Of a stretch of DNA of 32,000 nt, positions 9,388-29,107 are shown in pieces. The translations under genes and the position numbers were made by a program. The stretch spans positions 8,057 to 40,056 of the forward strand of contig QZKW01000053.1 of the NCBI GenBank assembly GCA_003599885.1. The letters are read 5' to 3'. The notes under the pieces are model-generated. The model saw only the letters and a program-made list of their open reading frames with translations, searched no databases and was not told the DNA's origin. The stretch is from Desulfobacteraceae bacterium (GTDB lineage: Bacteria > Desulfobacterota > Desulfobacteria > Desulfobacterales > Desulfosalsimonadaceae). The first letter of the stretch is position 1. Each line of letters opens with the position of its first letter.

Positions 9388-10347
9388 TTATCCCTTGATC
9401 CGGTTAAACACCATGCTCCTGTCCGTCATGAGTTGCCGCCGTCCGTCAACCGCCCATAAAGAGACAGGCGGAACTGGTTCCGTTTCCGTCTTCATGTCCC
9501 GGGCAGAGGCTGCCATCTGACGCGGAGACAGGTGCATGGACAGGGCCATGCCGATGGCCGCCGCCATTTCAGGCGGTATTTCATCCGATGCGGGTGAAGC
9601 TGGCAAGGTGGGGGCCGCAGCCTGGGCAGGTGTATTCACAGGAGGAATGACAGGCTGGATTTCTTTAGGTTTTCGTTCTATCCTCTGGAATATCGCTCCG
9701 GAAAGCATCATGCCCGCCATCAGCACGGATAGAACAATAAAGACTCCGAAGAACCGGATAAACAGGGTGCCCAGCACATATCCCCAGAACGAGTCCATAG
9801 GACCGCCGATGAGCGTTATCCGGCCGTTTGCCGCCCCGTCCGAATCAAACTGCCCGCCGTCTTTTATCCGGACCACAAATTGCTGAACTTTATCTCCCAA
9901 AGGGATGTTTTCCGCCTGTGAATCCATCCAGGGTGTCGGCAGTTGTTCGTTGAAAATCCAGAAATAGGTGGAGGAAGTGAAAAACGCCGAGGTAATCGTC
10001 AGGGTCGCTTCCCCCCCTGGGGCCACTCCGCCGATTTCAAGGAGGAAGAGGTCGGAACGGAAATCCTTGTTGTTGATTTGGGGACTCATGGCCTTGTTGA
10101 TATCAAACGCATTCACTGCGGCCAGAGTGCCGCCGCCGGTCACTTCAAATGCGAGCGTGACGCTGGTGCTTTTGGCTCTGGGGATGAGTTTCGCGGTGGT
10201 GATTCCGTCTTCCACGGTAAATTCGGGCTTTGGTTTTTCAATATCTTCTTCCATATAGGCCATGGATACGGCCGGCGTCAGAAAAAGAAAGAGTAAGGCG
10301 ACGGTCAGGCATTTTTTGATAAAAAACAGTGATAATTTATTATTCAT
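9388..10347 (-). CDS. OadG-family (decarboxylase gamma/delta anchor) protein with a long N-terminal exported domain
   Basis: Residues ~185-225 (GYVLGTLFIRFFGVFIVLSVLMAGMMLSGAIFQRIE), a Pro/Ala linker and IPPEMAAAIGMALSMHL match the OadG/MmdD-type anchor. Residues 1-30 are a signal peptide. Residues 31-183 are an extra domain ending in IKDGGQFDSDGAANGRITLIGGP. Confidence 0.6.
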   Translation of the reverse strand: MNNKLSLFFIKKCLTVALLFLFLTPAVSMAYMEEDIEKPKPEFTVEDGITTAKLIPRAKSTSVTLAFEVTGGGTLAAVNAFDINKAMSPQINNKDFRSDLFLLEIGGVAPGGEATLTITSAFFTSSTYFWIFNEQLPTPWMDSQAENIPLGDKVQQFVVRIKDGGQFDSDGAANGRITLIGGPMDSFWGYVLGTLFIRFFGVFIVLSVLMAGMMLSGAIFQRIERKPKEIQPVIPPVNTPAQAAAPTLPASPASDEIPPEMAAAIGMALSMHLSPRQMAASARDMKTETEPVPPVSLWAVDGRRQLMTDRSMVFNRIKG

Positions 10348-10356
10348 TTCGCCCTC

Positions 10357-11505
10357 CTATTGAAACATGGCGATAAACATGCCGGCTGCGGCTGCGGAAC
10401 CGATTACGCCGGCCAGATTGGGCCCCATCGCATGCATGAGCAGCCAGTTGTCCGGATCAGCTTTAAGCCCTTCGGAATGGGAAACCCGTGCGCACATCGG
10501 CACCGCAGAAACCCCGGCTGATCCGATCAGCGGGTTCATCTTTTCTTTTAAAAACAAATTCATGATGTGAACCGTGAGGATCCCCCCGAATGTGCAGATA
10601 ACAAAATCCCCGAGTCCGAACGCGAAAATCAGCAGCGGCTTCCAGTGCAGGAAGGTTTCCGCCTGCATGGTCGCGCCCACGGATAGCCCCAGAAAGATGG
10701 TGACGATATTCATCAGCGCGTTTTGGGCCGTGTCCGTCAACCGTTTGACGACAAAGCTTTCCCGCATCAGGTTGCCGAACATGAACATGCCCATCAGCGG
10801 AGCCACCGCAGGGATCAGAAGGATAATGAGAAAACAGGCGACCAGCGGGAACAGCAGTTTCTCCCTGGCGGACACTTCCCGCAGCTGTCTCATACGGATG
10901 CGTCTTTGTTTATGTGTGGTCATCCACCGCATGATGGGGGGCTGAATCAGGGGCACCATGGCCATGTAGGAGTAGGCGGCCAGGGCGTTTGCTCCCAGCA
11001 GATGGGGGGCCAGCTTGGCGGTGAGGTAAATGGTGGTGGGGCCGTCCGCGCCGCCGATAATTCCCACGGATGCCGCTTCTTTTAAGGTGAACCCGAAGAA
11101 AAGGGTTCCAACATAGGTGATAAATACGCCCAGTTGGGCACCTGCCCCGATAATCAAAACTTTCGGGTTGGCGATGAGCGGTCCGAAATCCGTCATGGCC
11201 CCGAGCCCCAGAAAAATCACACAGGGGATGATTTCCCATTCAACGCCGTATTTGTAAAATGCCCGGATCAGTTCCGGGTTGCCATGCTCGGTATATCCCA
11301 TCAGCGGGGCCAGAGGGAAATTAACGATAAAAATCCCGAATCCGATGGGCAGCAGCAGGAGTGGCTCAAATTCTTTGGCAATGGCCAGATAAAGGAATAA
11401 CAGCCCGATGCACAGCATTAAGCCCTGGCCGCCGGTCAGGTTGGGAATCCCTGTCTGCGTAATCAGGATGTTTTTAATCAGTTCCAGTACATGTTCGAAA
11501 GACAT
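10357..11505 (-). CDS. sodium ion-translocating decarboxylase subunit beta (OadB/MmdB/GcdB family)
   Basis: 382-aa polytopic membrane protein with strong family resemblance throughout ([61 protein letters not shown]). It sits between the carboxyltransferase and anchor/biotin-carrier genes. Confidence 0.9.
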
Positions 11506-11523
11506 AAGCTAAAATCTCCTAAT

Positions 11524-13077
11524 TTAAAGCGGAATATTTCCGTGTTTTTTTGGCGGATTGGTATCCCGCTTGGTCTTGAGCATTTTTAAGGCCTGAATAA
11601 TCTGGGGCCGGGTGTCCGCCGGATCGATCACGTCGTCAATGTAGCCGAATTCCGCTGCTTTATAAGGATTGGCGAATTTGTCCCGGTAGTCATCCACCAG
11701 GCGCTGTTTTTCTGCTGCGGCGTCGGTTGCGGATTTGATTTCTTTGCGGAAAATGATATTGACGGCCCCGTCCGCGCCCATGACCGCGATTTCAGCCGTG
11801 GGGTAGGCGATGTTGATATCACCGCGAATGTGCTTGGAACTCATGACGCAGTAAGCGCCGCCGTAGGCTTTTCGGGTGATGAGGGTGAGGCGCGGCACTG
11901 TGGCCTCGCAGAATGCATAGATGAGTTTCGCGCCGTGCTTGATGATGCCGCCGTGCTCCTGATTGATGCCGGGCAGGAAGCCGGGAACATCTTCATAAAT
12001 GACGAGGGGGATGTTGAATGCGTCGCAGAACCGCACAAAGCGCGCGCCTTTCATGGAGGCATTGGCGTCCAGGCATCCGGCCATAACGCTTGGCTGGTTG
12101 GCGATAATGCCCACCGAAGCGCCGTCGAACCGGGCAAATCCCACGACAATATTTTTGGCGAAATGCTCATGGGCTTCAAAGAAATATCCGTCATCCACGT
12201 TGGAGCGGATGATGTCCCTTATATCATAGGGTTTGTTGGGATCTGCCGGAACCACGTCCCGGAGTTTCAGATCACGGCGGCCGGGATCATCGGTGCAGGG
12301 GGTTCGCGGCGCATCTTCCATGTTGTTTTGAGGAAGGAAACTCATCAGTTCGCGGATTTTTAAGATACAGGCCGCATCATCCGGAGAAGCGAAGTGGGCC
12401 ACGCCGCTGATTTCATTATGGGCCATGGCGCCGCCCAGGTCTTCCTTGGTCACCACTTCACGGGTCACTGCTTTAATGACCTCCGGGCCGGTGATGAACA
12501 TTGAGCTGGTTTGCTCCACCATGAAAATCCAGTCGGTCAATGCCGGGGAATACACGGATCCGCCCGCGCAGGGCCCCATAATGGCCGTAATCTGGGGAAT
12601 TACGCCGGATGCCATGACGTTTCTAAGAAAGATGTCTGCGTATCCGGCAAGACTCATGACCCCTTCCTGAATCCGGGCGCCGCCCGAATCGCACAGTCCC
12701 ACCAGAGGCGCGCCCATTCGCTGGGCCATTTCCATGACTTTGCAGATTTTTTCAGCATGGGCAAGCGATAGAGAGCCGCCAAAAACGGTGAAATCCTGAG
12801 AAAAAACAAAAGTCTGCCGTCCGTTCACCAGGCCGTATCCCGTCACCACACTGTCGCCGAGGATTTTCTGGTCCGCCATGCCGAAATCCGTGCATCGGTG
12901 GGCTTTAAAGCGGTCAAGTTCCACAAAGGTGCCCGGGTCCATCAGCTTGGCGATGCGTTCGCGGGCGCTTAACTTTCCGGATTCATGCTGTTTTTGAATC
13001 CGGTCCGCGCCGCCGCCCTGAAGCGCTTCCTGGCTTTTTTGTTCCAGTTTTTTCAATAAGTCCTGGGATGTCGTCAT
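11524..13077 (-). CDS. acyl-CoA carboxyltransferase, methylmalonyl-CoA decarboxylase alpha-subunit type (PccB/MmdA family)
   Basis: 517 aa with hallmark segments [60 protein letters not shown] and [21 protein letters not shown] upstream. Substrate assignment is an inference from size and motifs. Confidence 0.88.
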
Positions 13078-16189: not shown

Positions 16190-16885
16190 TTATGCCGGAG
16201 GTTGTGGGGCCATGGCCCTGCGGATAAACCGCATCATGCCCTGAATGATTTTATCATCATTGTCCAGGGCATCGTCTCCGGCAAAAATTTTCAGCCTCTC
16301 CTTATAATATTCCGATGTGGCGGAAAACTGAAGCATTACCAGCAGGTTGTCTAGGCAGAAGGAGGTGATTCGCTCATCCAGGTCCGGGGCCATAATCCCT
16401 GCTTGTTTGGCCTCAGCCATCATGGCCCGGTAGAAATCCGCAGTAATGCTTTCCATCTGCCGGGAGACGGTTTTCGACAAATGCGCCAGACCCCCGGAAG
16501 TCAGGTCCAGGTAAATCTGACTGAGTTCGGGAAACTGCCGGGAATAATCCTGGGCCAGATGCAGCATCATTTCCAGTTTATCAAAAATATCGCCTTTGGT
16601 GAGGTCTACGCTGGAGATCACTTTTTCAAGCACGGCGTAGCCATGATCCACAATGGTCAGAAACAGGCGCTCTTTGGATTCAAAATAATTATACATGGAT
16701 CCGATGCTGATGCCGGCATTTTTGGCGATGATGTTGATGTTGGCGGCGATGAAACCTTTGGTTGAGAATTCCGCAATCGCCGCGTCCAGGATGCGCTGCT
16801 GTTTGTCTTTACCAATGCGGTCAAACGCATCCTTGTAATGCTTTTCTATAAAATAGGTGGTGGGGTTTTCTTCAAAGCTCGTCAT
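16190..16885 (-). CDS. TetR/AcrR family transcriptional regulator
   Basis: N-terminal HTH ILDAAIAEFSTKGFIAANINIIAKNAGISIGSMYNYFESKERLF, followed by a helical ligand-binding domain. Confidence 0.9.
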   Translation of the reverse strand: MTSFEENPTTYFIEKHYKDAFDRIGKDKQQRILDAAIAEFSTKGFIAANINIIAKNAGISIGSMYNYFESKERLFLTIVDHGYAVLEKVISSVDLTKGDIFDKLEMMLHLAQDYSRQFPELSQIYLDLTSGGLAHLSKTVSRQMESITADFYRAMMAEAKQAGIMAPDLDERITSFCLDNLLVMLQFSATSEYYKERLKIFAGDDALDNDDKIIQGMMRFIRRAMAPQPPA

Positions 16886-17062: not shown

Positions 17063-17086
17063 TTTTGAGTGAGCGCTCACTCAAAA
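17063..17086. promoter_or_regulatory. perfect 24-bp palindrome TTTTGAGTGAGCGCTCACTCAAAA, candidate TetR operator for the ceramidase operon
   Basis: Read directly; fully self-complementary. It is located in the divergent tetR/ceramidase intergenic region, 21 nt downstream of a plus-strand TTGACA (17037-17042) and 136 nt upstream of the ceramidase ATG. Confidence 0.5.
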
Positions 17087-17221: not shown

Positions 17222-19342
17222 ATGATGACGTCCGAAAAAAAGATGGGTTTAGGGCTTGCCAGGGGTTTCCAGATCGTTCTGGCGGTCGTTTTGGCCGGGG
17301 GCATTTTTTTCAGTAATCCCATGGAGGCTGAAGCGGCTGATTTTCTAATCGGCACCGGCATATATGACATCACCGGCCCTGCGGCGGAACTGGGCATGAT
17401 GGGTTATTCCATGCCTGACCAGAAAACCCGGGGCATCAGTATGCGGATTCGGGCGCGGGCTTTTGTGGTCGCGGACCCGGTAAGCAACCGGCGGGTAGCG
17501 CTGGTGATTGCAGACACCGGGATCATTCCTCAGGGGGTCAAGCAGCGGGTGACGGCACTCTTGGCCGCACGGTTCGGCAGTCTGTATACGGATAAAAATG
17601 TGCTGGTCAGCGCAAGCCACACGCACAGTGCGCCGGGCGCCTATTCCCATTACGCCATGTATGATCTGGCAATGCTGGGGTATGATAAAACCAATTTCAA
17701 CTGCGTGGCGGACGGCATTTTTCAATCCATTGTGCGGGCCCACGGGAACCTCACACCTGGAAATATTCTGATCAAGAGCGGCGAACTCAACAACTGCGGA
17801 TGGAACCGTTCTCCCATCGCCTATACCAATAACCCGGCCAGCGAAACCAGCCAATATACGTCCAATACCGACAAAACCATGACCCTGATGAAATTCGTGA
17901 CCGCAACCGGTCAGGAAATCGGGGCCTTCAACTGGTTTGCCGTTCATCCCACCAGCATGGGCAACACCAACAAGCTCATTACCGGGGACAATAAAGGGTA
18001 TGCCGCCTATCTGTTTGAAAAAACAATGGGAACGAATTATATGGCTGCCAATACTTTTGTGGCCGCCTTTGCCGAGAGCAATGCGGGGGATGTGTCGCCC
18101 AATATTTTCTGGGGATACCCCAATGGGGTGGATGACGCCGCTCATATGAAACTTCTGGGCGAGCGTCAGTATATGAAGGCAATGGAACTGTTCAACACCG
18201 CATCCGCGAGGTTGTCCGGCGGGGTGGATTTCCGTCATCAGTATGTGGATTTTTCAAATGAATCCATCGACAGCGCGTTTATGCCTCAGGGTGAAGGCAG
18301 CGGCCACACCTGTGGGGCAGGCATCGGCGTGTCTATGCTGGCGGGAAGCACCGAAGACGGCAAAGGCATTGATATCGGGGAAGGCATCACCTATCCCTAT
18401 GATATTTCCATCCTGGGAAGCGTGTTTCCCTGGGAATTTACTATCATGCCCGAAGAGCAGGCCTGCCACGGGGAAAAGCCCATTATCCTGCCCATGGGAA
18501 GCATCCGGCCCCAGGGTATTCCCCTGACTCCGGAAGTTCTGCCGGTTCAGATCCTCAAAATCGGCAATCTGGCCATCATCGGTCAGCCTACGGAAATAAC
18601 CACCATGGCCGGACGCAGGCTTCAGGAAACGGTATTGAACGCATTGGGAGGGGCAGTGGATTACGTGGTGATCGCGGGGCTTTCCAATGCCTATGCCGGA
18701 TATACAACGACCCGGGAAGAATACGCAATGCAGCATTATGAAGGCGCTTCCACCCATTTCGGGCCTTATTCCCTCAATGCCTATCAGCAGCGGTTTGCGG
18801 GCATTGCATCGGACATGGCTGCCGGCAGGGCATCGGCTGCCGGCCCCGTCCCCAGAGATATCAGCAATAATCAAATTCTGAATGTGCCCGGAGTGGTGTT
18901 TGACGACAAACCCCTGGGAACGGATTTCGGAAGCGTTGAGACAAACGCCAATGCTTCCTACAACCGGGGGGCGACGGTCCGCGTGGTATTCTGGGGCGCG
19001 CATCCCCGAAACAATCTGCGGATACAGGGCACGTTTTTAACCGTGGAAAAAGTCAATACGGTTGAAGTCTGCCGCAATGAGAAAGTCGGGTGCGACACTG
19101 TGACGGTTTGTGAAAACAGGGTCACCGGATATACCGCGGTGGCAAGGGACTGGGACCCTGAAACGGTTTATCAATGGGAACGAAGCGGCATCGCCAATTC
19201 CAAGGTCACAATTTCCTGGACCATTCCGGCAAACACCCCGCCCGGACAATACCGGATCCGGCATTTCGGCAACTGGAAGTCCGGATGGACCGGCGCCATT
19301 ACGGCGTATGAAGGCGTATCCAGAGTGTTTACTGTAAACTGA
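17222..19342 (+). CDS. neutral/alkaline non-lysosomal ceramidase family protein, secreted
   Basis: 706 aa. GGGGGAGGGG RBS and signal peptide (LAVVLAGGIFFSNPMEAEA). N-terminal family signature IGTGIYDITGPAAELGMMGY...RARAFVV, Zn-site-like SASHTHSAPG, and a C-terminal beta-domain (RIRHFGNWKSGW). Confidence 0.85.
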   Translation: MMTSEKKMGLGLARGFQIVLAVVLAGGIFFSNPMEAEAADFLIGTGIYDITGPAAELGMMGYSMPDQKTRGISMRIRARAFVVADPVSNRRVALVIADTGIIPQGVKQRVTALLAARFGSLYTDKNVLVSASHTHSAPGAYSHYAMYDLAMLGYDKTNFNCVADGIFQSIVRAHGNLTPGNILIKSGELNNCGWNRSPIAYTNNPASETSQYTSNTDKTMTLMKFVTATGQEIGAFNWFAVHPTSMGNTNKLITGDNKGYAAYLFEKTMGTNYMAANTFVAAFAESNAGDVSPNIFWGYPNGVDDAAHMKLLGERQYMKAMELFNTASARLSGGVDFRHQYVDFSNESIDSAFMPQGEGSGHTCGAGIGVSMLAGSTEDGKGIDIGEGITYPYDISILGSVFPWEFTIMPEEQACHGEKPIILPMGSIRPQGIPLTPEVLPVQILKIGNLAIIGQPTEITTMAGRRLQETVLNALGGAVDYVVIAGLSNAYAGYTTTREEYAMQHYEGASTHFGPYSLNAYQQRFAGIASDMAAGRASAAGPVPRDISNNQILNVPGVVFDDKPLGTDFGSVETNANASYNRGATVRVVFWGAHPRNNLRIQGTFLTVEKVNTVEVCRNEKVGCDTVTVCENRVTGYTAVARDWDPETVYQWERSGIANSKVTISWTIPANTPPGQYRIRHFGNWKSGWTGAITAYEGVSRVFTVN

Positions 19343-19349
19343 CGGATTC

Positions 19350-20807
19350 ATGCTGTATCCGCTGCTCTCGCCATGGATCAAATTCCCGGCGCTCGGAATC
19401 TTACTGAACGGGATTTATTTCGGGCTGATTCTGGCGGGAATGACGGTGGCAGCGGTTCTTTTTTACAAACAAATGGCCCGGACCGGGGTTGATCCAAACC
19501 GGCTCCGGGCCTTTGTTGTTCTGTCCGGCGTCATGGCGTTTCCCCTGGGCGTGATCGGTTCCCAGGCCGCCAACATGTTCTATTTCCCGCCGGAACAGTG
19601 GAGTTTCGTTTTTTTTTCAGAGCAATTCTTTTCCGGTCCCCACCAGACGTTTCATGCTTCCCTGATTCTGCCCCTTGCATTTCTTCTCGTCATGGCGGCG
19701 GTCTTCCGGCTGAACCTTTCGCATGTGGCGGATACGGTGTTTCTTTATCTTCCGCTGGGCCATGCCGTTGGCAGGACCGGGTGCTTTCTGGTGGGTTGCT
19801 GCTGGGGAAATTTTGTCACATTGACCTGCATTGGAAGGGAATTCTCATTCCATAATCCGGTTCCCCTGTATGAAGTGCTGCTGAATTTATTTTTGTTCTT
19901 TTTTTTACGATTCCATTACCGGCGAATCTACGTGACACGGCAATTGGAGGGGCAGGGCGGCAGGGTGACTGCCTTGTATTTGGTGGGGTACGGCGCTATC
20001 CGCATGCTGCTTGAAACCATCCGCCCGGAGCAGGTGGTGGGCTTTGGCATGACTCTGGCCCAGTGGGGTATGATGGTTTTTATGCTCACAGGACTGGTGA
20101 TGCAGGCCCTGATTTTCTGTCACCGGCATGCCCGAAAAACCGAATCAATGAATAGGTCTCTGCATCCGGCTGTTGTCCGGCTGGCGGGTTTTCTGCTGAG
20201 TCTGGTGCTGGTTGCCGGAGCCGCAGCCTTTCTGCTTAACAGGAAACTGATTCCCTGGCCGTTTCACGGTGCGGACACAGTTGCCGGAACCTGGGGGAGG
20301 ATTCCCGTTTACCTGCCGTTGACTGTTTTTTCGCTGGGCTCGATTTTCTGGATCAGCGACACGACCCGGCCGGTTTGGAATCACTTCCGGCGGGGCCGGT
20401 TTTCCCCATCCTTTCTGGCAGGGCTTGCTGTCAGTGCAGGGTATAGCCTCTATCTCTACCTGTCGTGCAGTTTCGCGTTAAAGGGGATGGGTTTTGTCTT
20501 TCCGGCCATGGCGCTTGGCCTGCTGAATGCCGTGACCGAAGAACTGCTCTTCCGGCTGGTTCTGTTTCAGCTCCTTTTTCGTCTGATCGGATCAATGAAA
20601 TGGTCCAACCTGGTTCAGGCAGTGATTTACGGCTTTCCCCACCTGTTTATCGGCGGGCCGGCATTTTTTGGGTATGCTGCTTTTTACGGTCTGGTTCTTG
20701 GATGGATCACCCGGACAAACAGGAGCATCCTGCCGGCCATAATCTGTCATTTTATTGCCGATATCGGCGCAGTGGGCCTTCCGCTGCTGGTCAATCCCTT
20801 ACGATAA
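19350..20807 (+). CDS. fusion protein: divergent Lgt-like (prolipoprotein diacylglyceryl transferase family) domain + CPBP/Abi intramembrane glutamic protease domain
   Basis: Residues ~1-258 carry Lgt-family blocks: FHAS, GRTGCFLVGCCWG (19770-19808), HNPVPLYEVLLN, LVGYGAIRMLLETIR. Residues ~355-485 carry the CPBP motifs TEELLFR (about 20535-20555), YGFPHLF and ICHFIADIG. The start is 8 nt after the ceramidase stop. Confidence 0.7.
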   Translation: MLYPLLSPWIKFPALGILLNGIYFGLILAGMTVAAVLFYKQMARTGVDPNRLRAFVVLSGVMAFPLGVIGSQAANMFYFPPEQWSFVFFSEQFFSGPHQTFHASLILPLAFLLVMAAVFRLNLSHVADTVFLYLPLGHAVGRTGCFLVGCCWGNFVTLTCIGREFSFHNPVPLYEVLLNLFLFFFLRFHYRRIYVTRQLEGQGGRVTALYLVGYGAIRMLLETIRPEQVVGFGMTLAQWGMMVFMLTGLVMQALIFCHRHARKTESMNRSLHPAVVRLAGFLLSLVLVAGAAAFLLNRKLIPWPFHGADTVAGTWGRIPVYLPLTVFSLGSIFWISDTTRPVWNHFRRGRFSPSFLAGLAVSAGYSLYLYLSCSFALKGMGFVFPAMALGLLNAVTEELLFRLVLFQLLFRLIGSMKWSNLVQAVIYGFPHLFIGGPAFFGYAAFYGLVLGWITRTNRSILPAIICHFIADIGAVGLPLLVNPLR

Positions 20808-21823: not shown

Positions 21824-22267
21824 ATGAAGACAATCGCTTATGGAACAGTTTTTTCTGTAATGGCCGGATTGCTGCTGCTCGTCAGCGCCTGCAGCAGTTC
21901 AAAAGTCGGGATGCAAAACAACCGCCTCCTGCCGTGCCCGGACTCGCCCAATTGTGTGTCATCATTTGAGACAGATTCCGCTCATTATGTTGAACCACTG
22001 CGTTATGAGGGCTCCAAAGCAGATGCGCGCCAAAAACTCCTGTCCATCCTGAATACAACAAAACGGGTAAAAGTGGTCACATCGGAAGAAACGTATATCC
22101 ATGCGGAATTCACTTCCCTGATCTTCCGGTTTGTGGATGATGTGGAATTTTATCTGGATGAAAAAGAACCGGTTATTCATGTCCGTTCTGCGTCACGGGT
22201 CGGGTATTCAGACCTGGGGGCCAACCGGAAGCGCGTGGAAGAAATCCGGCGGCAATTCATTCAATAA
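21824..22267 (+). CDS. DUF1499 domain lipoprotein
   Basis: Lipobox LLLLVSAC followed by the LLPCPDSPNCVSS motif characteristic of DUF1499. 147 aa. Confidence 0.8.
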   Translation: MKTIAYGTVFSVMAGLLLLVSACSSSKVGMQNNRLLPCPDSPNCVSSFETDSAHYVEPLRYEGSKADARQKLLSILNTTKRVKVVTSEETYIHAEFTSLIFRFVDDVEFYLDEKEPVIHVRSASRVGYSDLGANRKRVEEIRRQFIQ

Positions 22268-22281
22268 AAAAGCGAAAGCAG

Positions 22282-22620
22282 ATGCATACCAGTCTCCTGG
22301 AGTTTTCACATCCCCAACTAAACGAGCGGGTGACCGCCATCGGCGGCAGTTATGTTCTGCTCAAGGAAGTTTGCCTGCCGTTTGACGGTGAAACACTGTT
22401 GTATCTGATCGGCGCGGCCATATTCGACACCACCTGCTGCGGGACCGGCGGATGCGCCTATGCGCTTGTTCCGGGGTTTGTGCGGCATTGGAAATATGAG
22501 ACGGATGCAACCGGTCGGCCGGTGTCGCAAGTGTCGCCGGTGACCGGTGACCGTCTGCGGGAGAGGGTAAAAGCCGTTATTTTCAAAAAAGAGTCCGTTC
22601 ATCAGGTGGATTTTATGTAA
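22282..22620 (+). CDS. hypothetical small protein with CCGTGGC cysteine motif
   Basis: 112-aa ORF, same strand as the acylase gene and 45 nt upstream of it. No family recognised. Confidence 0.45.
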   Translation: MHTSLLEFSHPQLNERVTAIGGSYVLLKEVCLPFDGETLLYLIGAAIFDTTCCGTGGCAYALVPGFVRHWKYETDATGRPVSQVSPVTGDRLRERVKAVIFKKESVHQVDFM

Positions 22621-22665
22621 ATGATGAGACATTTCCCATACAACAAAATTTGCAGGAGTCCGGCC

Positions 22666-25221
22666 ATGAGTGCTTATCATCGGATGCGTTATCAGTGGAT
22701 GCTTCACCAGTGCTGCCTGATTTTTTTAAGTCTGATTCTTTCCGGATGCGGGAATCTTTTTGATCTGGCCTTACGAAAAACCGCTGATCCGGATGAGGGC
22801 TCGGTATCGCTTGCGGGAATCCATGACACGGTGACCATCCGCCGGGATGACCTGGGCATTCCGGTAATTGAGGCGAAGAATCTTCATGATCTGGTGTTTG
22901 CGGCCGGTTATGCCATGGCCTCCGACCGTCTGGCGCAAATGGTGACTTTTTCCCTGCTCGGGCAGGGCCGCTTGTCTGAAATGGCGGGGAAAGTCGCCCT
23001 GGATATGGACGTCTATGTCCGCACCATGGGGGTGGCCGAAGCTGCAAGGGCTGAATTCACCGGCATGAACCCGGAAATCAGGGATGCACTGAGCGCATTT
23101 TCCGATGGCATTAATGCCTACATCACCACCCACCGCGACCAACTGCCGCTGGATTTCAAAATTTCCGGATACACGCCGGAACCCTGGGAACCGGTTAATT
23201 CCATGTACATTGCCCATGTGTTTAACCTGGGGCTGTCTTTTAATCTTCATGAAGAGATCGCTTTTTTAAATATGGCGGGTGCTGTAGGAGCGTCCAAAGC
23301 CGCCTGGCTGATGCCGGTGTATCCGGATGAAACGCTGCCGTTTGAAAAAGCCGCAGCCCTTGAAGGAATTAATTTAAAGGGGATGATGCGGACGGCTGAA
23401 AATATCAGCCAGGTGCATCGGCAGCTCAAATACGTCATCGCGCCCCCGGGAACGGCCGCATCGAATAACTGGGGCATTGCTCCGCAAAATACCCTGAAAC
23501 AGGCGAGCATTATTGCCAATGATACGCATCTTCCGCTGGAGCAGCCATCCATGTGGATGCTGATGCACCTGAAGTGTCCGGATATGGATGCCGCGGGGGT
23601 TGCCATTGCCGGAGTTCCCGGCATTGTGGCGGGGTATAACGGGCATATCGCCTGGGGCGAAACCATGGTCATGGGAGACAATCAGGACGTATTTATCGAG
23701 CAGCTGAAAGAGATCAGCGGAAAGCCCCATTATTTCTATAAAGGGAAGTGGCTGCCGGTGGTTGAACGGCAGGAGACGTTTAAAATCAAAGGGAAGGGTG
23801 ATCTGATCCAGACCATTGATTCCACAAATCATGGACCGCTTCTGAATCCTGCCATTAAAAATTCGCCGAAAAACATTATGCAGCCGCCGGCCATTGAGGT
23901 GGAGTCCGTTTACGGTCTTGCGGTGCAGTCTGTGATTTCCCATCCCGGCCAGTCCTTTAATGGCGTGTATGAACTGATGCGGGCAACGGATATGGAAAGC
24001 GCACGGGATGCAATCCGCAAGGTTCGGTCCATGTCCTTGAATTTTATTTATGGAAACGCGGACCAGATCGCCTGGCAGGTCAGCGGAAGATATCCCGTCC
24101 GCCAGTCCGGAAGGGGCCATCTGCCGTCTCCCGGCTGGACTGGAGAATATGACTGGAAGGGGTATGCGGAAGTGGATGATCATCCGTATGTCAAGGACCC
24201 GCCGGATGGGTATCTGTATACGGCCAACAACCGGACCATCACGCCGGACCATGATCCGGTCCTTTCCTCTTCCTGGTGTACACCGGAAAGATCCGAACGC
24301 ATTGGGGAGATGCTGGAAAAAACCAATCGGCACACCTGGCAGGAATCCGTTGACATGCACCGGGACCGGACGGATTTGCTGGTGAAAAAATTTCAGTCTG
24401 TTTTGTTTGCCCCGGCATTTTCAGCCGATGTCCGGAAGCGGATCCAGTCATGGAAAGACGGGGAAAAAATTCAAAATGCCAATGAAGCCATGGAAATCCT
24501 GAAGTCCTTTGACGGCAATATGCTGCCGGAATCCAAAGGGGCGGCTGTGATGGGAATTTTTCAGCATGTGTTTATTCATCAGGTGTTTTCAGATGAATTG
24601 GGCCCTCCGGGCAGTCCGGCCTGGCAAAGCTTTATCATGGCGATTCAGGCGGTGTATTCCGCAGACCAGGACCATCTGCTCGGGCGTCTGGACAGTCCTT
24701 TCTGGGATAATATCAACACGCCGGAAAAAGAAACAAAGGCCGATATAATTGCGGAATCGCTGGCAGATGCCATTGCCTATGCTGAAGCGCATCTGGGGCG
24801 TGATCGTGAGCAGTGGCAGTGGGGACGGCTGTTGACGTATGAATGGCGAACCCAGACCACACAAATGAAGAATTTCCTGCCTGCCATGCAGCAATTCGGG
24901 GTAAGGGTGATGGGCAAATATACGGACCGGGGGCCCTATGCTGCCGGCGGCAGCTATAATACCTTAAATGTGGCCGGAAACCTCAAAGGCGAAAATTTCA
25001 ACGTATGGCTGGTGCCGGCCATGAGGATGATTGTGGATTTCGGCCTGGATGAACCCCTGTTCCTGACCAACAGCAGTGGTCAGTCCGGCAATCCGGTAAG
25101 CTCCCATTATGATGATGCCATTCCTGTGTGGTTAAAGGGCGACACCCGGTCTATGCCGTTTAAAGAGGGGAATATCAAAGCACAATATACCCATTCGTAT
25201 GTGTTGAAACCGAAATCGTGA
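22666..25221 (+). CDS. penicillin acylase family Ntn-hydrolase lipoprotein (possible acyl-homoserine-lactone / lipopeptide acylase)
   Basis: AGGAG (22654-22658) lies 7 nt before ATG 22666; the track ORF begins at 22621. Lipobox LILSGC has its Cys at 22747-22749. The alpha/beta autoprocessing junction GTAA|SNNWGIAP has the nucleophile Ser codon at 23461-23463. Length is about 850 aa. Confidence 0.85.
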   Translation: MSAYHRMRYQWMLHQCCLIFLSLILSGCGNLFDLALRKTADPDEGSVSLAGIHDTVTIRRDDLGIPVIEAKNLHDLVFAAGYAMASDRLAQMVTFSLLGQGRLSEMAGKVALDMDVYVRTMGVAEAARAEFTGMNPEIRDALSAFSDGINAYITTHRDQLPLDFKISGYTPEPWEPVNSMYIAHVFNLGLSFNLHEEIAFLNMAGAVGASKAAWLMPVYPDETLPFEKAAALEGINLKGMMRTAENISQVHRQLKYVIAPPGTAASNNWGIAPQNTLKQASIIANDTHLPLEQPSMWMLMHLKCPDMDAAGVAIAGVPGIVAGYNGHIAWGETMVMGDNQDVFIEQLKEISGKPHYFYKGKWLPVVERQETFKIKGKGDLIQTIDSTNHGPLLNPAIKNSPKNIMQPPAIEVESVYGLAVQSVISHPGQSFNGVYELMRATDMESARDAIRKVRSMSLNFIYGNADQIAWQVSGRYPVRQSGRGHLPSPGWTGEYDWKGYAEVDDHPYVKDPPDGYLYTANNRTITPDHDPVLSSSWCTPERSERIGEMLEKTNRHTWQESVDMHRDRTDLLVKKFQSVLFAPAFSADVRKRIQSWKDGEKIQNANEAMEILKSFDGNMLPESKGAAVMGIFQHVFIHQVFSDELGPPGSPAWQSFIMAIQAVYSADQDHLLGRLDSPFWDNINTPEKETKADIIAESLADAIAYAEAHLGRDREQWQWGRLLTYEWRTQTTQMKNFLPAMQQFGVRVMGKYTDRGPYAAGGSYNTLNVAGNLKGENFNVWLVPAMRMIVDFGLDEPLFLTNSSGQSGNPVSSHYDDAIPVWLKGDTRSMPFKEGNIKAQYTHSYVLKPKS

Positions 25222-27042: not shown

Positions 27043-27489
27043 ATGAAGTGTAAGCGAACGCCTGTATTGATCATCCTGTGTCTGCTGTTTATGAGTCTGT
27101 TTTTGGTTGCCTGTGAAAAGGAAAAAAAACAGGGCAAGCTATCGATTGCAGAGCAGACGTTTCATATGAGGCAGGATACAGAAAACACGTTTACCATTGA
27201 CGCAAAGGGTAAAATCAGAAATATTGGTGATGTGGATGTCAAAAACGTAGTTGTCACCGGTTACTGCAGGTCCTGTCCCGGCCTTTGGGGTGTCGGTCAG
27301 TGGCAGACCTCTCCGGATCTCGAAAGAATGCCCCAGCAAAAAGACACCATCAATTATATTGCCGCCGGGGGTGAAGAATCATTCAGCTTCACGGAAGTCG
27401 CAGACTATTTATTGACAGCCGACCGGAAAACACCGGAATTGCCTGAGAAACTGGAAGCCGTCATTGAGTCTTTTGAAACCGTCGAATAA
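27043..27489 (+). CDS. CxxC lipoprotein, paralog 1 of 4 (unknown family)
   Basis: AAGGAG RBS, lipobox LFLVAC and tether EKEKKQGK. Core GKIRNIGDVDVKNVVVTGYCRSC, QQKDTINYIAAGGEESFSF, and C-terminal ESFETVE. Confidence 0.8.
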   Translation: MKCKRTPVLIILCLLFMSLFLVACEKEKKQGKLSIAEQTFHMRQDTENTFTIDAKGKIRNIGDVDVKNVVVTGYCRSCPGLWGVGQWQTSPDLERMPQQKDTINYIAAGGEESFSFTEVADYLLTADRKTPELPEKLEAVIESFETVE

Positions 27490-27615: not shown

Positions 27616-28062
27616 ATGAAATTTTATATCCGTCTGACTGCGATTATGTTGTCCTTATTGTTTGTTTGCCTGTGTCTGTTTGCCTGTGAAAAGGAAAAAA
27701 AGCAGGGCAAGGTGATTGTTACGGAAAAAGAATTTTGGTTAGATGAGTATGGAAAGGTTACATTGTCATTAAATGTCAAAGGAAAAATTAAAAATGCCGG
27801 CGATGTGGATGTGAAAAATATTGTCGTCACCGGGCAATGCAAAACCTGTGGTGAGGTGTTGATCAGCGGCAGGTGGTTTGTTTCTGATACGGAAAAGCTC
27901 CCTGAGCAAAAAGATATCATCAATTTTTTACCGGCAGGCGCTGAGGAGCAATTTCAGTTTAAAGGCATTGCATATTTTTTTACCAAAGCCGGAGAAACGC
28001 CGTCGGCAAATCCTGAAGGGCTTGAGGTCTTCATAGAGTCATTTGAAGTTGTTGAAAAATAA
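27616..28062 (+). CDS. CxxC lipoprotein, paralog 2 of 4 (unknown family)
   Basis: GAGAGG RBS, lipobox LCLFAC and tether EKEKKQGK. Core GKIKNAGDVDVKNIVVTGQCKTC, EQKDIINFLPAGAEEQFQF, and C-terminal ESFEVVEK. Confidence 0.8.
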   Translation: MKFYIRLTAIMLSLLFVCLCLFACEKEKKQGKVIVTEKEFWLDEYGKVTLSLNVKGKIKNAGDVDVKNIVVTGQCKTCGEVLISGRWFVSDTEKLPEQKDIINFLPAGAEEQFQFKGIAYFFTKAGETPSANPEGLEVFIESFEVVEK

Positions 28063-28084
28063 TGTAATAATAATGAGGTGTGCT

Positions 28085-28552
28085 ATGAAATCGTATATTC
28101 GCCTGACTTCTCCAGCGCTGATTTTATTATTTGTTTGTCTTGCCGTGGTTGCCTGCGAAAAAAAAAAGGAAGGCAAGGTGGAGGTTGTCGCTCAGGAATT
28201 TGTTTTAAGGGCGGATTCCGATCATTCATATGTCATTGACGCCAAAGGCAAAATAAAAAACACCGGCGAAGTGGATGTGAAAAATATTGTCGTGACGTCA
28301 GTCTGCAAGTCTTGCAGTGAAATATTTGCTGTCGGGATATGGTTCATCACAGGGAGTGAAGGGAGTGAAGGATCTCAAAAGAATCCGGAGCAAAAAGATA
28401 CGATCAATTATCTGCCCGCAGGCAAGGAAGCGGAATTCAATTTTCAGGAAGCGGCGTATATGATGGTTCTGCCAAAAGGCTCTCCTCCCACCAGCAACAA
28501 GCCGGATCAGATTGAAGTGGTGGTTGAATCATTTGAAACGGTTGACAAATAA
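28085..28552 (+). CDS. CxxC lipoprotein, paralog 3 of 4 (unknown family)
   Basis: I chose ATG 28085 (GAGG at 28075-28078); the track ORF start at 28043 would overlap paralog 2. Lipobox LAVVAC and tether EKKKEGK. Core GKIKNTGEVDVKNIVVTSVCKSC, EQKDTINYLPAGKEAEFNF, and C-terminal ESFETVDK. Confidence 0.8.
   Translation: MKSYIRLTSPALILLFVCLAVVACEKKKEGKVEVVAQEFVLRADSDHSYVIDAKGKIKNTGEVDVKNIVVTSVCKSCSEIFAVGIWFITGSEGSEGSQKNPEQKDTINYLPAGKEAEFNFQEAAYMMVLPKGSPPTSNKPDQIEVVVESFETVDK
28351..28372 (+). repeat. 9-bp tandem duplication (AGGGAGTGA x2 plus partial AGGA) inside paralog 3
   Basis: Read directly. It encodes GSEGSEGS, an insertion relative to the other three paralogs, in the variable loop after the CxxC motif. 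Confidence 0.7.
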
Positions 28553-28660: not shown

Positions 28661-29107
28661 ATGGTGAGATATCGTCGGCGATTTACTTTATTTTGTGTGT
28701 TGATGTGTCTGAGTGTTTGTCTTGTCTCCTGCGAAAAGAAAAAGACTGAGGGTAAAGTGGAGGTTTCTGCGCAGGAATTTGTTTTACGGCAGGATAAAGA
28801 AAATTCATATATTATTGACGCAAAAGGCAAAATTAAAAATACCGGCACAGTGGATGTCAAAAATGTGGTTGTGACCGGACAATGCGGCTCTTGCAGTGAA
28901 ATATGGACTATCGGGATATGGACGATATCGGGAACTGAAAAATGGCCGTATCAGAAGGATACCATCAGTTATTTACCCGCAGGCAGTGAAGGGGAGTTTA
29001 GTTTTAAAAGTGTCGCGGATTTTGCAAGCCGTGCGGGTGACCCGGCCCCCAGCATGCCGGATAAGCTTGCAGTCATTATTGAATCGTTTGAGACAGTTGA
29101 AAAATAA
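28661..29107 (+). CDS. CxxC lipoprotein, paralog 4 of 4 (unknown family)
   Basis: AGAGGAG RBS, lipobox VCLVSC and tether EKKKTEGK. Core GKIKNTGTVDVKNVVVTGQCGSC, YQKDTISYLPAGSEGEFSF, and C-terminal ESFETVEK. Confidence 0.8.
   Translation: MVRYRRRFTLFCVLMCLSVCLVSCEKKKTEGKVEVSAQEFVLRQDKENSYIIDAKGKIKNTGTVDVKNVVVTGQCGSCSEIWTIGIWTISGTEKWPYQKDTISYLPAGSEGEFSFKSVADFASRAGDPAPSMPDKLAVIIESFETVEK

Follow-up and report, generated by a model that had tools for sequence, protein, structure and literature searches.

The 32,000-nt stretch of Desulfobacteraceae contig QZKW01000053.1 analysed here (the window) encodes, at positions 19350-20807, a protein in which a divergent Lgt-like lipid transferase domain is followed by a CPBP domain of the Rce1-like glutamic intramembrane protease type. 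Across the ~90 family loci that we gathered from genomes and metagenomes (numbered with L) the pairing of these two domains is near-obligate, and, by score and distribution, the protein belongs to the Lgt family as an accessory enzyme distinct from the housekeeping one. We read the Lgt-like/CPBP pair as a two-step maturation device for envelope proteins, a tentative explanation to which we give somewhat less than an even chance of being right as a whole. The open reading frame (ORF) and its parts, in amino acids (aa), lie as follows.

19350-20807, plus strand: fused Lgt-like/CPBP ORF with ATG start, 485 aa, stop codon at 20805-20807.
19350-20147, plus strand: Lgt-like half, aa 1-266, from Pfam LGT, the Foldseek match to 5AZB and the AlphaFold2 secondary structure.
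19770-19808, plus strand: signature loop GRTGCFLVGCCWG, aa 141-153, aligned to G142-G154 of E. coli Lgt.
20131-20159, plus strand: junction, with a net 1-nt frame change at about 20131-20139 (CCCGAAAAACC) upstream of the ATG at 20148 (M267) at which CPBP formerly started.
20148-20804, plus strand: CPBP half, aa 267-485, Pfam Rce1-like.

Both domains scored above their Pfam gathering scores, PF01790 LGT over aa 26-252 (91.7 bits vs 24.9, E 6e-26) and PF02517 Rce1-like/CPBP over aa 382-472 (58.3 bits vs 22.4, E 9e-16), as the original prediction, made from the letters of the sequence, had proposed; every motif that it quoted was found in the protein where it had been placed. An AlphaFold2 model of the product, built on 40 homologues, reached a pLDDT of 90 and a pTM of 0.71, and its top PDB match is E. 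coli Lgt (5AZB; Foldseek E 3e-6). The product is 100% identical to one protein of a Desulfobacteraceae metagenome-assembled genome (MAG), the name of which is domain-based only. The domain combination is already annotated automatically in databases; a literature search found no published account of it, nor any paper combining 'diacylglyceryl transferase', 'CAAX' and 'fused'.

The Lgt-like half, standalone orthologs of which are 262-280 aa long, has seven predicted transmembrane (TM) helices and, in the place of the E. coli head domain, a short predicted beta-hairpin, such that the periplasmic head between TM4 and TM5 would comprise ~22 residues in the family vs ~50 in E. coli. Residues Y26, H103, Y235, R239 and E243 of E. 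coli Lgt are retained as Y23, H102, Y214, R218 and E222, within the motifs TFHAS (aa 100-104) and GYGAIRMLLE (aa 213-222) for H102 and the last three, respectively. Together with R142 and G153, these residues are unchanged across 40 family members, in agreement with the predicted conservation of the Y235/R239/E243 block. In the signature loop, alignment of the family profile with E. coli Lgt (PDB 5AZB) places GRvGCllvGCCwG on GRLGNFINGELWG, so that R143 and G154 correspond to R142 and G153 of the ORF, and N146, E151 and L152 are replaced by C145, C150 and C151; all five loop residues (R142, C145, C150, C151 and G153) are invariant in the 40 members. The alignment given in the original prediction, in which the Arg and the last Gly are kept and the Asn and Glu have become Cys, is the same, and the textbook signature G-R-x-G-N-F-x-N-x-E-x-x-G accordingly fails at N146 and E151.

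The further suggestion that this altered loop signals a different lipid donor or acceptor did not fare as well. In a HMMER search of 1.84 billion cluster representatives, 47 matched at E<=1e-30, and the scores then dropped to a ~100-bit continuum of standalone ~250-aa Lgt-family proteins carrying GR.GC...GCC.G, for example GRWGCFFNGCCYG and GRIGCFLNGCCYG (P0092-P0120). These are nearer to the ORF product than canonical Lgt is, bear the name Lgt in MAGs of Bacillota, Acidobacteriota and Saccharibacteria, and exceeded the cut-off of TIGR00544, the NCBIfam Lgt equivalog, in five of the eight outgroup proteins scanned (124-178 bits); the sole standalone context examined (L057:6001-6819) has no CPBP partner. 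The Cys-type loop is, on these comparisons, a trait of a large Lgt subgroup and not of the fusion. As an indication of a new donor or acceptor it is weak, because many standalone Lgt proteins have it, and, since it also occurs in proteins that pass TIGR00544, Lgt activity is not excluded by the loop alone. In E. coli Lgt, E151 hydrogen-bonds the phosphatidylglycerol (PG) head group (PMC4728403), and the Cys variant of the loop may alter donor recognition. Three divergent family members, P0086 (483 aa), P0087 (887 aa, with an additional ~420-aa N-terminal domain) and P0088 (469 aa), are without R142 and the Cys loop and have an intact-looking CPBP half.

The CPBP half carries EELLFR (aa 397-402), FPHLF (aa 429-433) and CHFIAD (aa 466-471), i.e. 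the EExxxR, FxxxH and HxxxN/D motifs of the CPBP family, all three of which had been predicted. In 67 CPBP domains of the family, conservation of E397, E398, R402, H431, H467 and D471 reaches 99% or more, and the half matches separate genes of 211-253 aa in relatives. Three predicted TM helices precede the EExxxR helix, and the whole model gave a weak match to MmRce1 (4CAD, E~0.9). The best NCBIfam matches are sorting proteases, MrtS (38.7 against a cut-off of 130) and MrtJ (27.5 against 75), with Mrt_core at 16.9 against 100; because these scores are far under the cut-offs, the half is, by this measure, not a member of the Mrt families. Both catalytic sets, the transferase and the protease, look intact.

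Both halves could be located in 76 loci, 51 of them fused and 25 adjacent, and the order is always Lgt-like then CPBP. The family falls into two clades with ~35-40% mutual identity: clade A, the ceramidase-linked homologues, which includes the window (43-82% identity over the Lgt half), and clade B (32-45%). Apart from L026, L042 and L070, every locus with a continuing contig has CPBP, as a gene or as a domain, after the Lgt-like part. The survey of Pfam architecture, taxonomic spread and neighbours that had been suggested as a check confirmed the domains and revealed a coupling strongly conserved across the two clades. Since both catalytic sets are conserved and the pairing holds, both halves appear to be functional and mutually dependent enzymes.

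The ORF product scored 43 bits against TIGR00544, with a cut-off of 118.9, and was far under the cut-offs of the remaining Lgt equivalog models in NCBIfam as well, which agrees with its predicted distinctness from canonical Lgt. The family was found in ~42 of 185,579 species genomes, its carriers being Desulfobacterales (Desulfosalsimonadaceae, Desulfatitalea, Desulfosudis, Desulforapulum and Desulfatiferula), in which it is patchy, and a group of Leptospirales/Spirochaetota MAGs; this is not the distribution of the universal, single-copy housekeeping Lgt. The window itself encodes several classical lipobox proteins, of the kind that need a normal Lgt. From the low equivalog score, the rarity, the regulated operon and these lipobox proteins, we infer that a canonical lgt is located elsewhere in the genome; none was found beside family genes in the ~1 Mb of gathered loci, to which the scan was limited. 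That the ORF is the housekeeping Lgt of its lineage with an appended domain, as its Pfam LGT domain and retained core catalytic residues might suggest, is an idea to which we give almost no credence: the score is far under the equivalog cut-off, the occurrence is rare and patchy, the operon is repressor-controlled, and P0086-P0088 have kept the CPBP half without R142 and the loop.

The single polypeptide of the original prediction stands as one continuous ORF of 485 aa; as a trait of its clade it does not, since 16 of 18 clade A loci, including those of the three closest relatives (82%, 79% and 75% identity), have Lgt-like and CPBP as two genes that adjoin or overlap, and the join rests on one frame change. 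Alignment of the DNA with split relatives (L003, L004 and L012) shows a 3-nt indel and one base missing at CCCGAAAAACC (20131-20141), next to an A5 run and 9-13 nt before the CPBP start codon, which is retained; the change moves the Lgt frame into the CPBP frame. Fusion is exceptional within its own clade, and at this locus it may have arisen by recent mutation in the organism or by an indel error of the assembly. The halves could thus be separate proteins in the organism, the fusion being an assembly error or a very recent mutation, which would concern the observation of a single polypeptide and not the function. The split relatives, the net 1-nt difference beside the homopolymer and the occurrence of the sequence in one assembly only all favour this; the junction also has substitutions and the 3-nt indel, beyond homopolymer length, a second clade A gene (L011, 58% identity) is independently fused, and 49 of 58 clade B genes are fused. 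On balance, we regard a spurious or very recent fusion as rather improbable. The fused state is clearly tolerated in the family, to judge from these gene structures.

Clade B neighbours bear on what the pair might act upon. In loci of the Desulfatitalea type, the neighbours of the fused gene include a TetR-type regulator and one, two or three PETase-like alpha/beta hydrolases, which are lipoproteins with a lipobox followed by Glu or Asp. At their other end, 15 of 17 PETase-like neighbours finish in a Gly/Ser/Asp-rich linker and G-C-[N/D/E/Y], after which comes a real stop codon (TAA, TAG or TGA); the two untagged proteins are copies of one gene (L046, L065), 2.9 kb away. In its general form the tag consists of a low-complexity linker, Gly-Cys, one to three residues and a true stop. 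It was found on adjacent proteins of at least four families in clade B, and outside these families comparable tails were almost absent among 917 ORFs (~1 Mb).

L019:884-5171, L021:4607-5434, L022:4831-5787, L028:307-1155 and L078:163-1062: tagged PETase-like genes.
L031:4986-5810 and 8672-9505, L035, L051, L075 and L095:8001-8819: further tagged PETase-like genes.
L010:9590-10597, L015:7590-8597 and L080:3890-4936, all minus strand: tagged members of a Pfam-less family, ending ..GGCGL or ..SGGCG.
L059:13414-14223: tagged GDSL-like lipase, ending ...DDDDSGCG.
L092:8859-9755: tagged protein 69 nt upstream of the Lgt-like gene, ending ...GGGGGCRCG.

The Pfam-less family belongs to the spirochaete loci, where three of its 12 members end ...GDDSGGDDSGGCGL or ...DDDDDDSGGCG and orthologs stop at ...DGYYQ. 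One PETase-like protein, used as a database query, matched 48 clusters; 34 are tagged, and all the named ones are Desulfobacterales. Among P0225-P0228, one PETase-like homologue has a type IX secretion system (T9SS) C-terminal sorting domain (PF18962) where the tag would be, and three have short Trp-rich tails instead (..NWWW, ..GFGW and ..GGW), which may be yet another signal. Where one catalytic domain is followed by interchangeable C-terminal modules, these usually mark a sorting or anchoring signal, and the T9SS domain that takes the place of the tag in one homologue is 'choice-of-anchor' behaviour. In a reverse test, a tagged protein picked blind to its context (P0213) lay 2.3 kb from a fused LGT and Rce1-like gene in three contigs. 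The residue preceding the tag Cys is nearly always Gly, and position -1 of a lipobox likewise prefers small residues. No NCBIfam or Pfam model covers the tag. Selenocysteine or read-through after the tails was considered and rejected, the stops being mostly TAA or TAG with nothing coding beyond.

The original prediction had proposed a dedicated lipidate-and-cleave enzyme. The conserved coupling, the distance from canonical Lgt and the Cys tags of clade B are in keeping with this; a Cys-tagged substrate, the part that has not been borne out, is missing from the window and the ceramidase-linked loci. In the mechanism that we propose, the Lgt-like half would act at the periplasmic side of the inner membrane and attach a lipid to the thiol of a cysteine in an exported substrate dedicated to it. 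Its retention of the arginines that bind phosphate, of the His and of the Tyr/Glu network known from Lgt suggests this; by analogy with Lgt, the lipid would be diacylglyceryl from a phospholipid. The CPBP half would then trim the peptide beside the lipidated Cys, as Rce1 does after prenylation and as has been proposed for myxosortase. In clade B the substrates are most likely the neighbouring lipoprotein lipases and esterases that end in Gly-Cys and one to three residues, and the outcome would be interfacial lipid hydrolases tethered to the membrane. The chemistry, the order of the steps, the tag as substrate and everything on the substrate in the clade of the window are what we infer from sequence and context, and the clade B tags together with their T9SS replacement support 'lipidate then cleave' for the family.

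In the clade of the window the setting is a ceramidase operon.

16190-16885, minus strand: TetR-family regulator (Pfam TetR_N, E 1e-12), divergent from the ceramidase operon.
17063-17086, no strand: candidate TetR operator, a perfect 24-bp palindrome, TTTTGAGTGAGC/GCTCACTCAAAA, at which TetR would presumably bind.
17222-19342, plus strand: secreted neutral/alkaline ceramidase, first gene of the operon (Pfam Ceramidase_alk, E 7e-163).
19064-19114, plus strand: insertion in the ceramidase C-terminal domain, aa 615-631, with invariant C617, C624 (in G-C-D) and C630.

The ceramidase, with a Pfam C-terminal domain (E 1e-46), matches the P. aeruginosa neutral ceramidase 2ZWS over aa 41-705 (E 8e-144), has an SPase-I-type signal peptide ending AEA/ADF and stops 7 nt before the fused ORF, as expected of the secreted ceramidase that had been predicted directly upstream. 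In 21 loci a ceramidase gene lies directly upstream of the Lgt-like gene; in clade A a neutral ceramidase always precedes it and a divergent TetR usually does, a TetR ortholog being found at the corresponding place in 10 further ceramidase-linked loci. The clade A cassette runs from TetR and the conserved palindromic operator through neutral ceramidase and the Lgt-like gene to CPBP, with spacers of 7-30 nt between the three operon genes; the genes downstream of CPBP are variable. The palindrome of the operator that had been called apparent is conserved: the core GAGTGA-N4-TCACTC has 18 matches in 1.03 Mb, 17 of which lie 100-250 nt upstream of a ceramidase gene, and the longer core TGAGTGA-N4-TCACTCA recurs upstream of ceramidase in 16 other loci (L004-L006, L011, L012, L036-L043, L060, L064 and L070). 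At position 1897 of L007 the operator precedes an operon of an SCP2-like protein and a class-III aminotransferase, which hints at a wider regulon.

Such an operon also invites the main alternative reading, in which the pair acts on lipids and not on proteins, as the membrane part of a TetR-induced utilisation or detoxification of ceramides or other acyl lipids, for example by conjugating or re-routing the sphingoid base, fatty acid or lysolipid freed by the neighbouring hydrolase. The tight ceramidase, Lgt-like and CPBP operon with its conserved operator and the operator in L007 are in line with this, as are the class-III aminotransferases that recur in six loci spanning both clades and the recurrent lipid and envelope neighbours. 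Besides the PETase-like proteins and GDSL esterases, these include an Acyl_transf_3/HGSNAT membrane acyltransferase near the fused gene in 15 loci and the commonest neighbour of the pair, a fused major facilitator superfamily (MFS)/spermidine-synthase-like/tetratricopeptide repeat (TPR) protein of ~1,050-1,170 aa (NF037959), found in 24 loci, one of them ceramidase-linked.

L021:8679-12194 (minus strand), L052:2747-5896, L040:7701-11111 and L095:8997-12317 (minus strand), with 20 further loci: MFS/spermidine-synthase-like/TPR protein.

Likewise, E151, which hydrogen-bonds the PG head group in E. coli (PMC4728403), is not retained, and the head domain has shrunk. However, the full protease motif set is kept in the CPBP half, the modular Cys tag and the T9SS swap would be left unexplained, and the Cys-type loop is common to proteins that score as ordinary Lgt. 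Moreover, we know of no Lgt-family member with a non-protein acceptor. Taken together, we consider action on lipids unlikely, though to be taken seriously; if true, the Lgt family would for the first time have an enzyme whose acceptor is not a protein.

CPBP/Abi proteins serve as bacteriocin immunity factors, and in both clades the pair is consistently next to a secreted lipid hydrolase, with a TetR-type regulator present. It might accordingly be an immunity module that shields the membrane of the producer from its own secreted lipolytic enzyme or the products thereof. The clade B hydrolases, however, are themselves lipoproteins in which the lipobox Cys is followed by an acidic residue, and would therefore be cell-bound and not released toxins; self-protection also gives no role to an Lgt-type transferase and leaves the Cys tag unexplained. 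We hold it to be very unlikely.

Several observations weigh against lipidation followed by cleavage as well, first among them those on the ceramidase. A search of 21 ceramidase orthologs for a lipobox, for a Cys conserved at the N-terminus and for a tag at the C-terminus found none of them, and Gly-Cys-X tails are absent from the window and from ~20 ceramidase-linked loci, including stop-free stretches of at least 30 aa. The enzyme was thus rejected as an obvious substrate, having only the internal Cys-rich insertion. This insertion, E-V-C-x6-G-C-D-x5-C, is invariant in 20 clade A ceramidases and absent from the P. aeruginosa enzyme, as is a fourth extra invariant Cys, C192. Through its G-C-D the co-transcribed ceramidase is the leading, if weak, candidate for the substrate in the clade of the window; C192, C617, C624 and C630 could simply form two disulfides. 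In addition, three ceramidase-linked loci (L026, L042 and L070) have an Lgt-like gene without an adjacent CPBP gene, and in the clade B tags no TM helix follows the Cys, in contrast to all Cys-type sorting signals described. The topology poses a further difficulty. The Rce1 cavity opens to the cytoplasmic side, and the Lgt site faces the periplasm. The N-terminus of Lgt contributes to the periplasmic head, giving an N-out/C-in arrangement (PMC4728403); because a protein that starts outside and has seven helices ends in the cytoplasm, the CPBP half would begin there, as in Rce1, a puzzle shared by myxosortase. For all family members the mechanism is drawn from genes and their neighbours.

Other features of the window include, downstream of the fused gene, a DUF1499 protein with the lipobox LLLVSAC (21824-22267, plus strand) and a penicillin-amidase/acylase-family protein with the lipobox LILSGC (22621-25221, plus strand), which makes two N-acyl-amide hydrolases, this and the ceramidase, within 6 kb. 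Between them lies a 112-aa ORF (22282-22620, plus strand) with no family match and a CCGTGGC motif, 75-85% identical in L004 and L012, where its last Cys is Ser. This ORF and two minus-strand ORFs of 138 and 177 aa were discarded as parts of the cassette, being present only in the closest relatives and without a family match. Four tandem paralogous small lipoproteins (27043-27489, 27616-28062, 28043-28552 and 28661-29107, plus strand), each with an internal CxxC, have lipoboxes of the form L[VF]AC/VVAC/LVSC, lie in a stretch with a GC content of 0.42, are also found in L004 and gave no Pfam match. On the minus strand, a haemolysin-III family protein (4836-5486), from a superfamily related to alkaline ceramidases, and a Na+-translocating decarboxylase cluster with carboxyltransferase, beta, gamma-like and biotin carrier genes (8859-13077) appear to be unrelated to the Lgt-like/CPBP pair.

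Bacterial protein lipidation is seen as an N-terminal pathway of Lgt and LspA, and then Lnt or its analogues. For C-terminal Cys signals, a CPBP protease, myxosortase, has been identified and the enzyme that lipidates the Cys has not; an accessory Lgt paralogue coupled to an intact CPBP protease would be a "Rosetta-stone" link between the two activities, and the tagged neighbours of clade B make the two-step hypothesis directly testable. More specifically, the pair might be a hitherto unrecognised bacterial and extracytoplasmic counterpart of eukaryotic CAAX processing, in which an Lgt paralogue S-lipidates the Cys of a C-terminal tag and a CPBP protease removes the trailing residues, with a different recognition site in the ceramidase operons of the window's clade, a proposal that we regard as possible but doubtful. 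If true, exported lipolytic enzymes would be left C-terminally lipid-anchored, the anchoring signal at the C-terminus and this use of the Lgt fold would both be new, and the 'unknown Lgt-like enzyme' postulated to act ahead of CPBP sorting proteases such as myxosortase would for the first time be identified genetically, through gene fusion or adjacency. A way in which ceramidases and lipases are tethered to membranes in anaerobic sediment bacteria would be suggested as well.

Among known systems, the closest in structure is E. coli Lgt (5AZB/5AZC), with which the ORF product shares the fold (Foldseek E 3e-6, TM-score 0.57 normalised to the target), the seven TM helices and the equivalents of Y26, H103, R143, G154, Y235, R239 and E243. 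The identity is ~23%, N146, E151 and L152 are all Cys in the ORF, and in place of the head of ~50 residues (E151-P197; PMC4728403) there is the ~22-residue hairpin. Unlike E. coli Lgt, the family is rare, embedded in an operon, regulated and paired with a CPBP protease. Its nearest outgroup in the representative search, the standalone Cys-loop Lgt proteins (e.g. P0094, P0101 and P0110), has the same signature loop, and differs in its length of ~250 aa and its 124-178 bits on TIGR00544. On the protease side, Rce1, as represented by MmRce1 (4CAD), has in common with the ORF an Rce1-like domain above the cut-off with EExxxR, FxxxH and HxxxD intact, three TM helices ahead of the EExxxR helix and the logic of cleavage beside a lipidated Cys; the partner of Rce1, however, is a prenyl transferase and its substrates are cytosolic, whereas here the partner is of the Lgt type and the putative substrates are exported.

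The model nearest to ours has been published for the myxosortase-type proteases (MrtX, MrtS and MrtJ), for which an unidentified 'Lgt-like' enzyme was postulated to lipidate the invariant Cys before CPBP cleavage (PMC11980579). Their targets carry a Cys motif, a TM helix and an Arg-rich tail, whereas the candidate tags here are without helix and tail, and no Mrt protease has been described as fused with or adjoining an Lgt homologue; Lgt is not mentioned in the myxosortase preprint of Haft. In the paper on DAG-RiPPs (diacylglycerol-bearing ribosomally synthesised and post-translationally modified peptides) the endogenous Lgt is employed, and no paralogue. Finally, LnsA/LnsB of S. aureus likewise tie a CPBP-fold membrane protein to the tailoring of lipoprotein lipids (PMC7387801); LnsB has degenerate catalytic motifs and an NlpC/P60 partner, whereas the ORF of the window combines intact protease motifs with a partner of the Lgt type.

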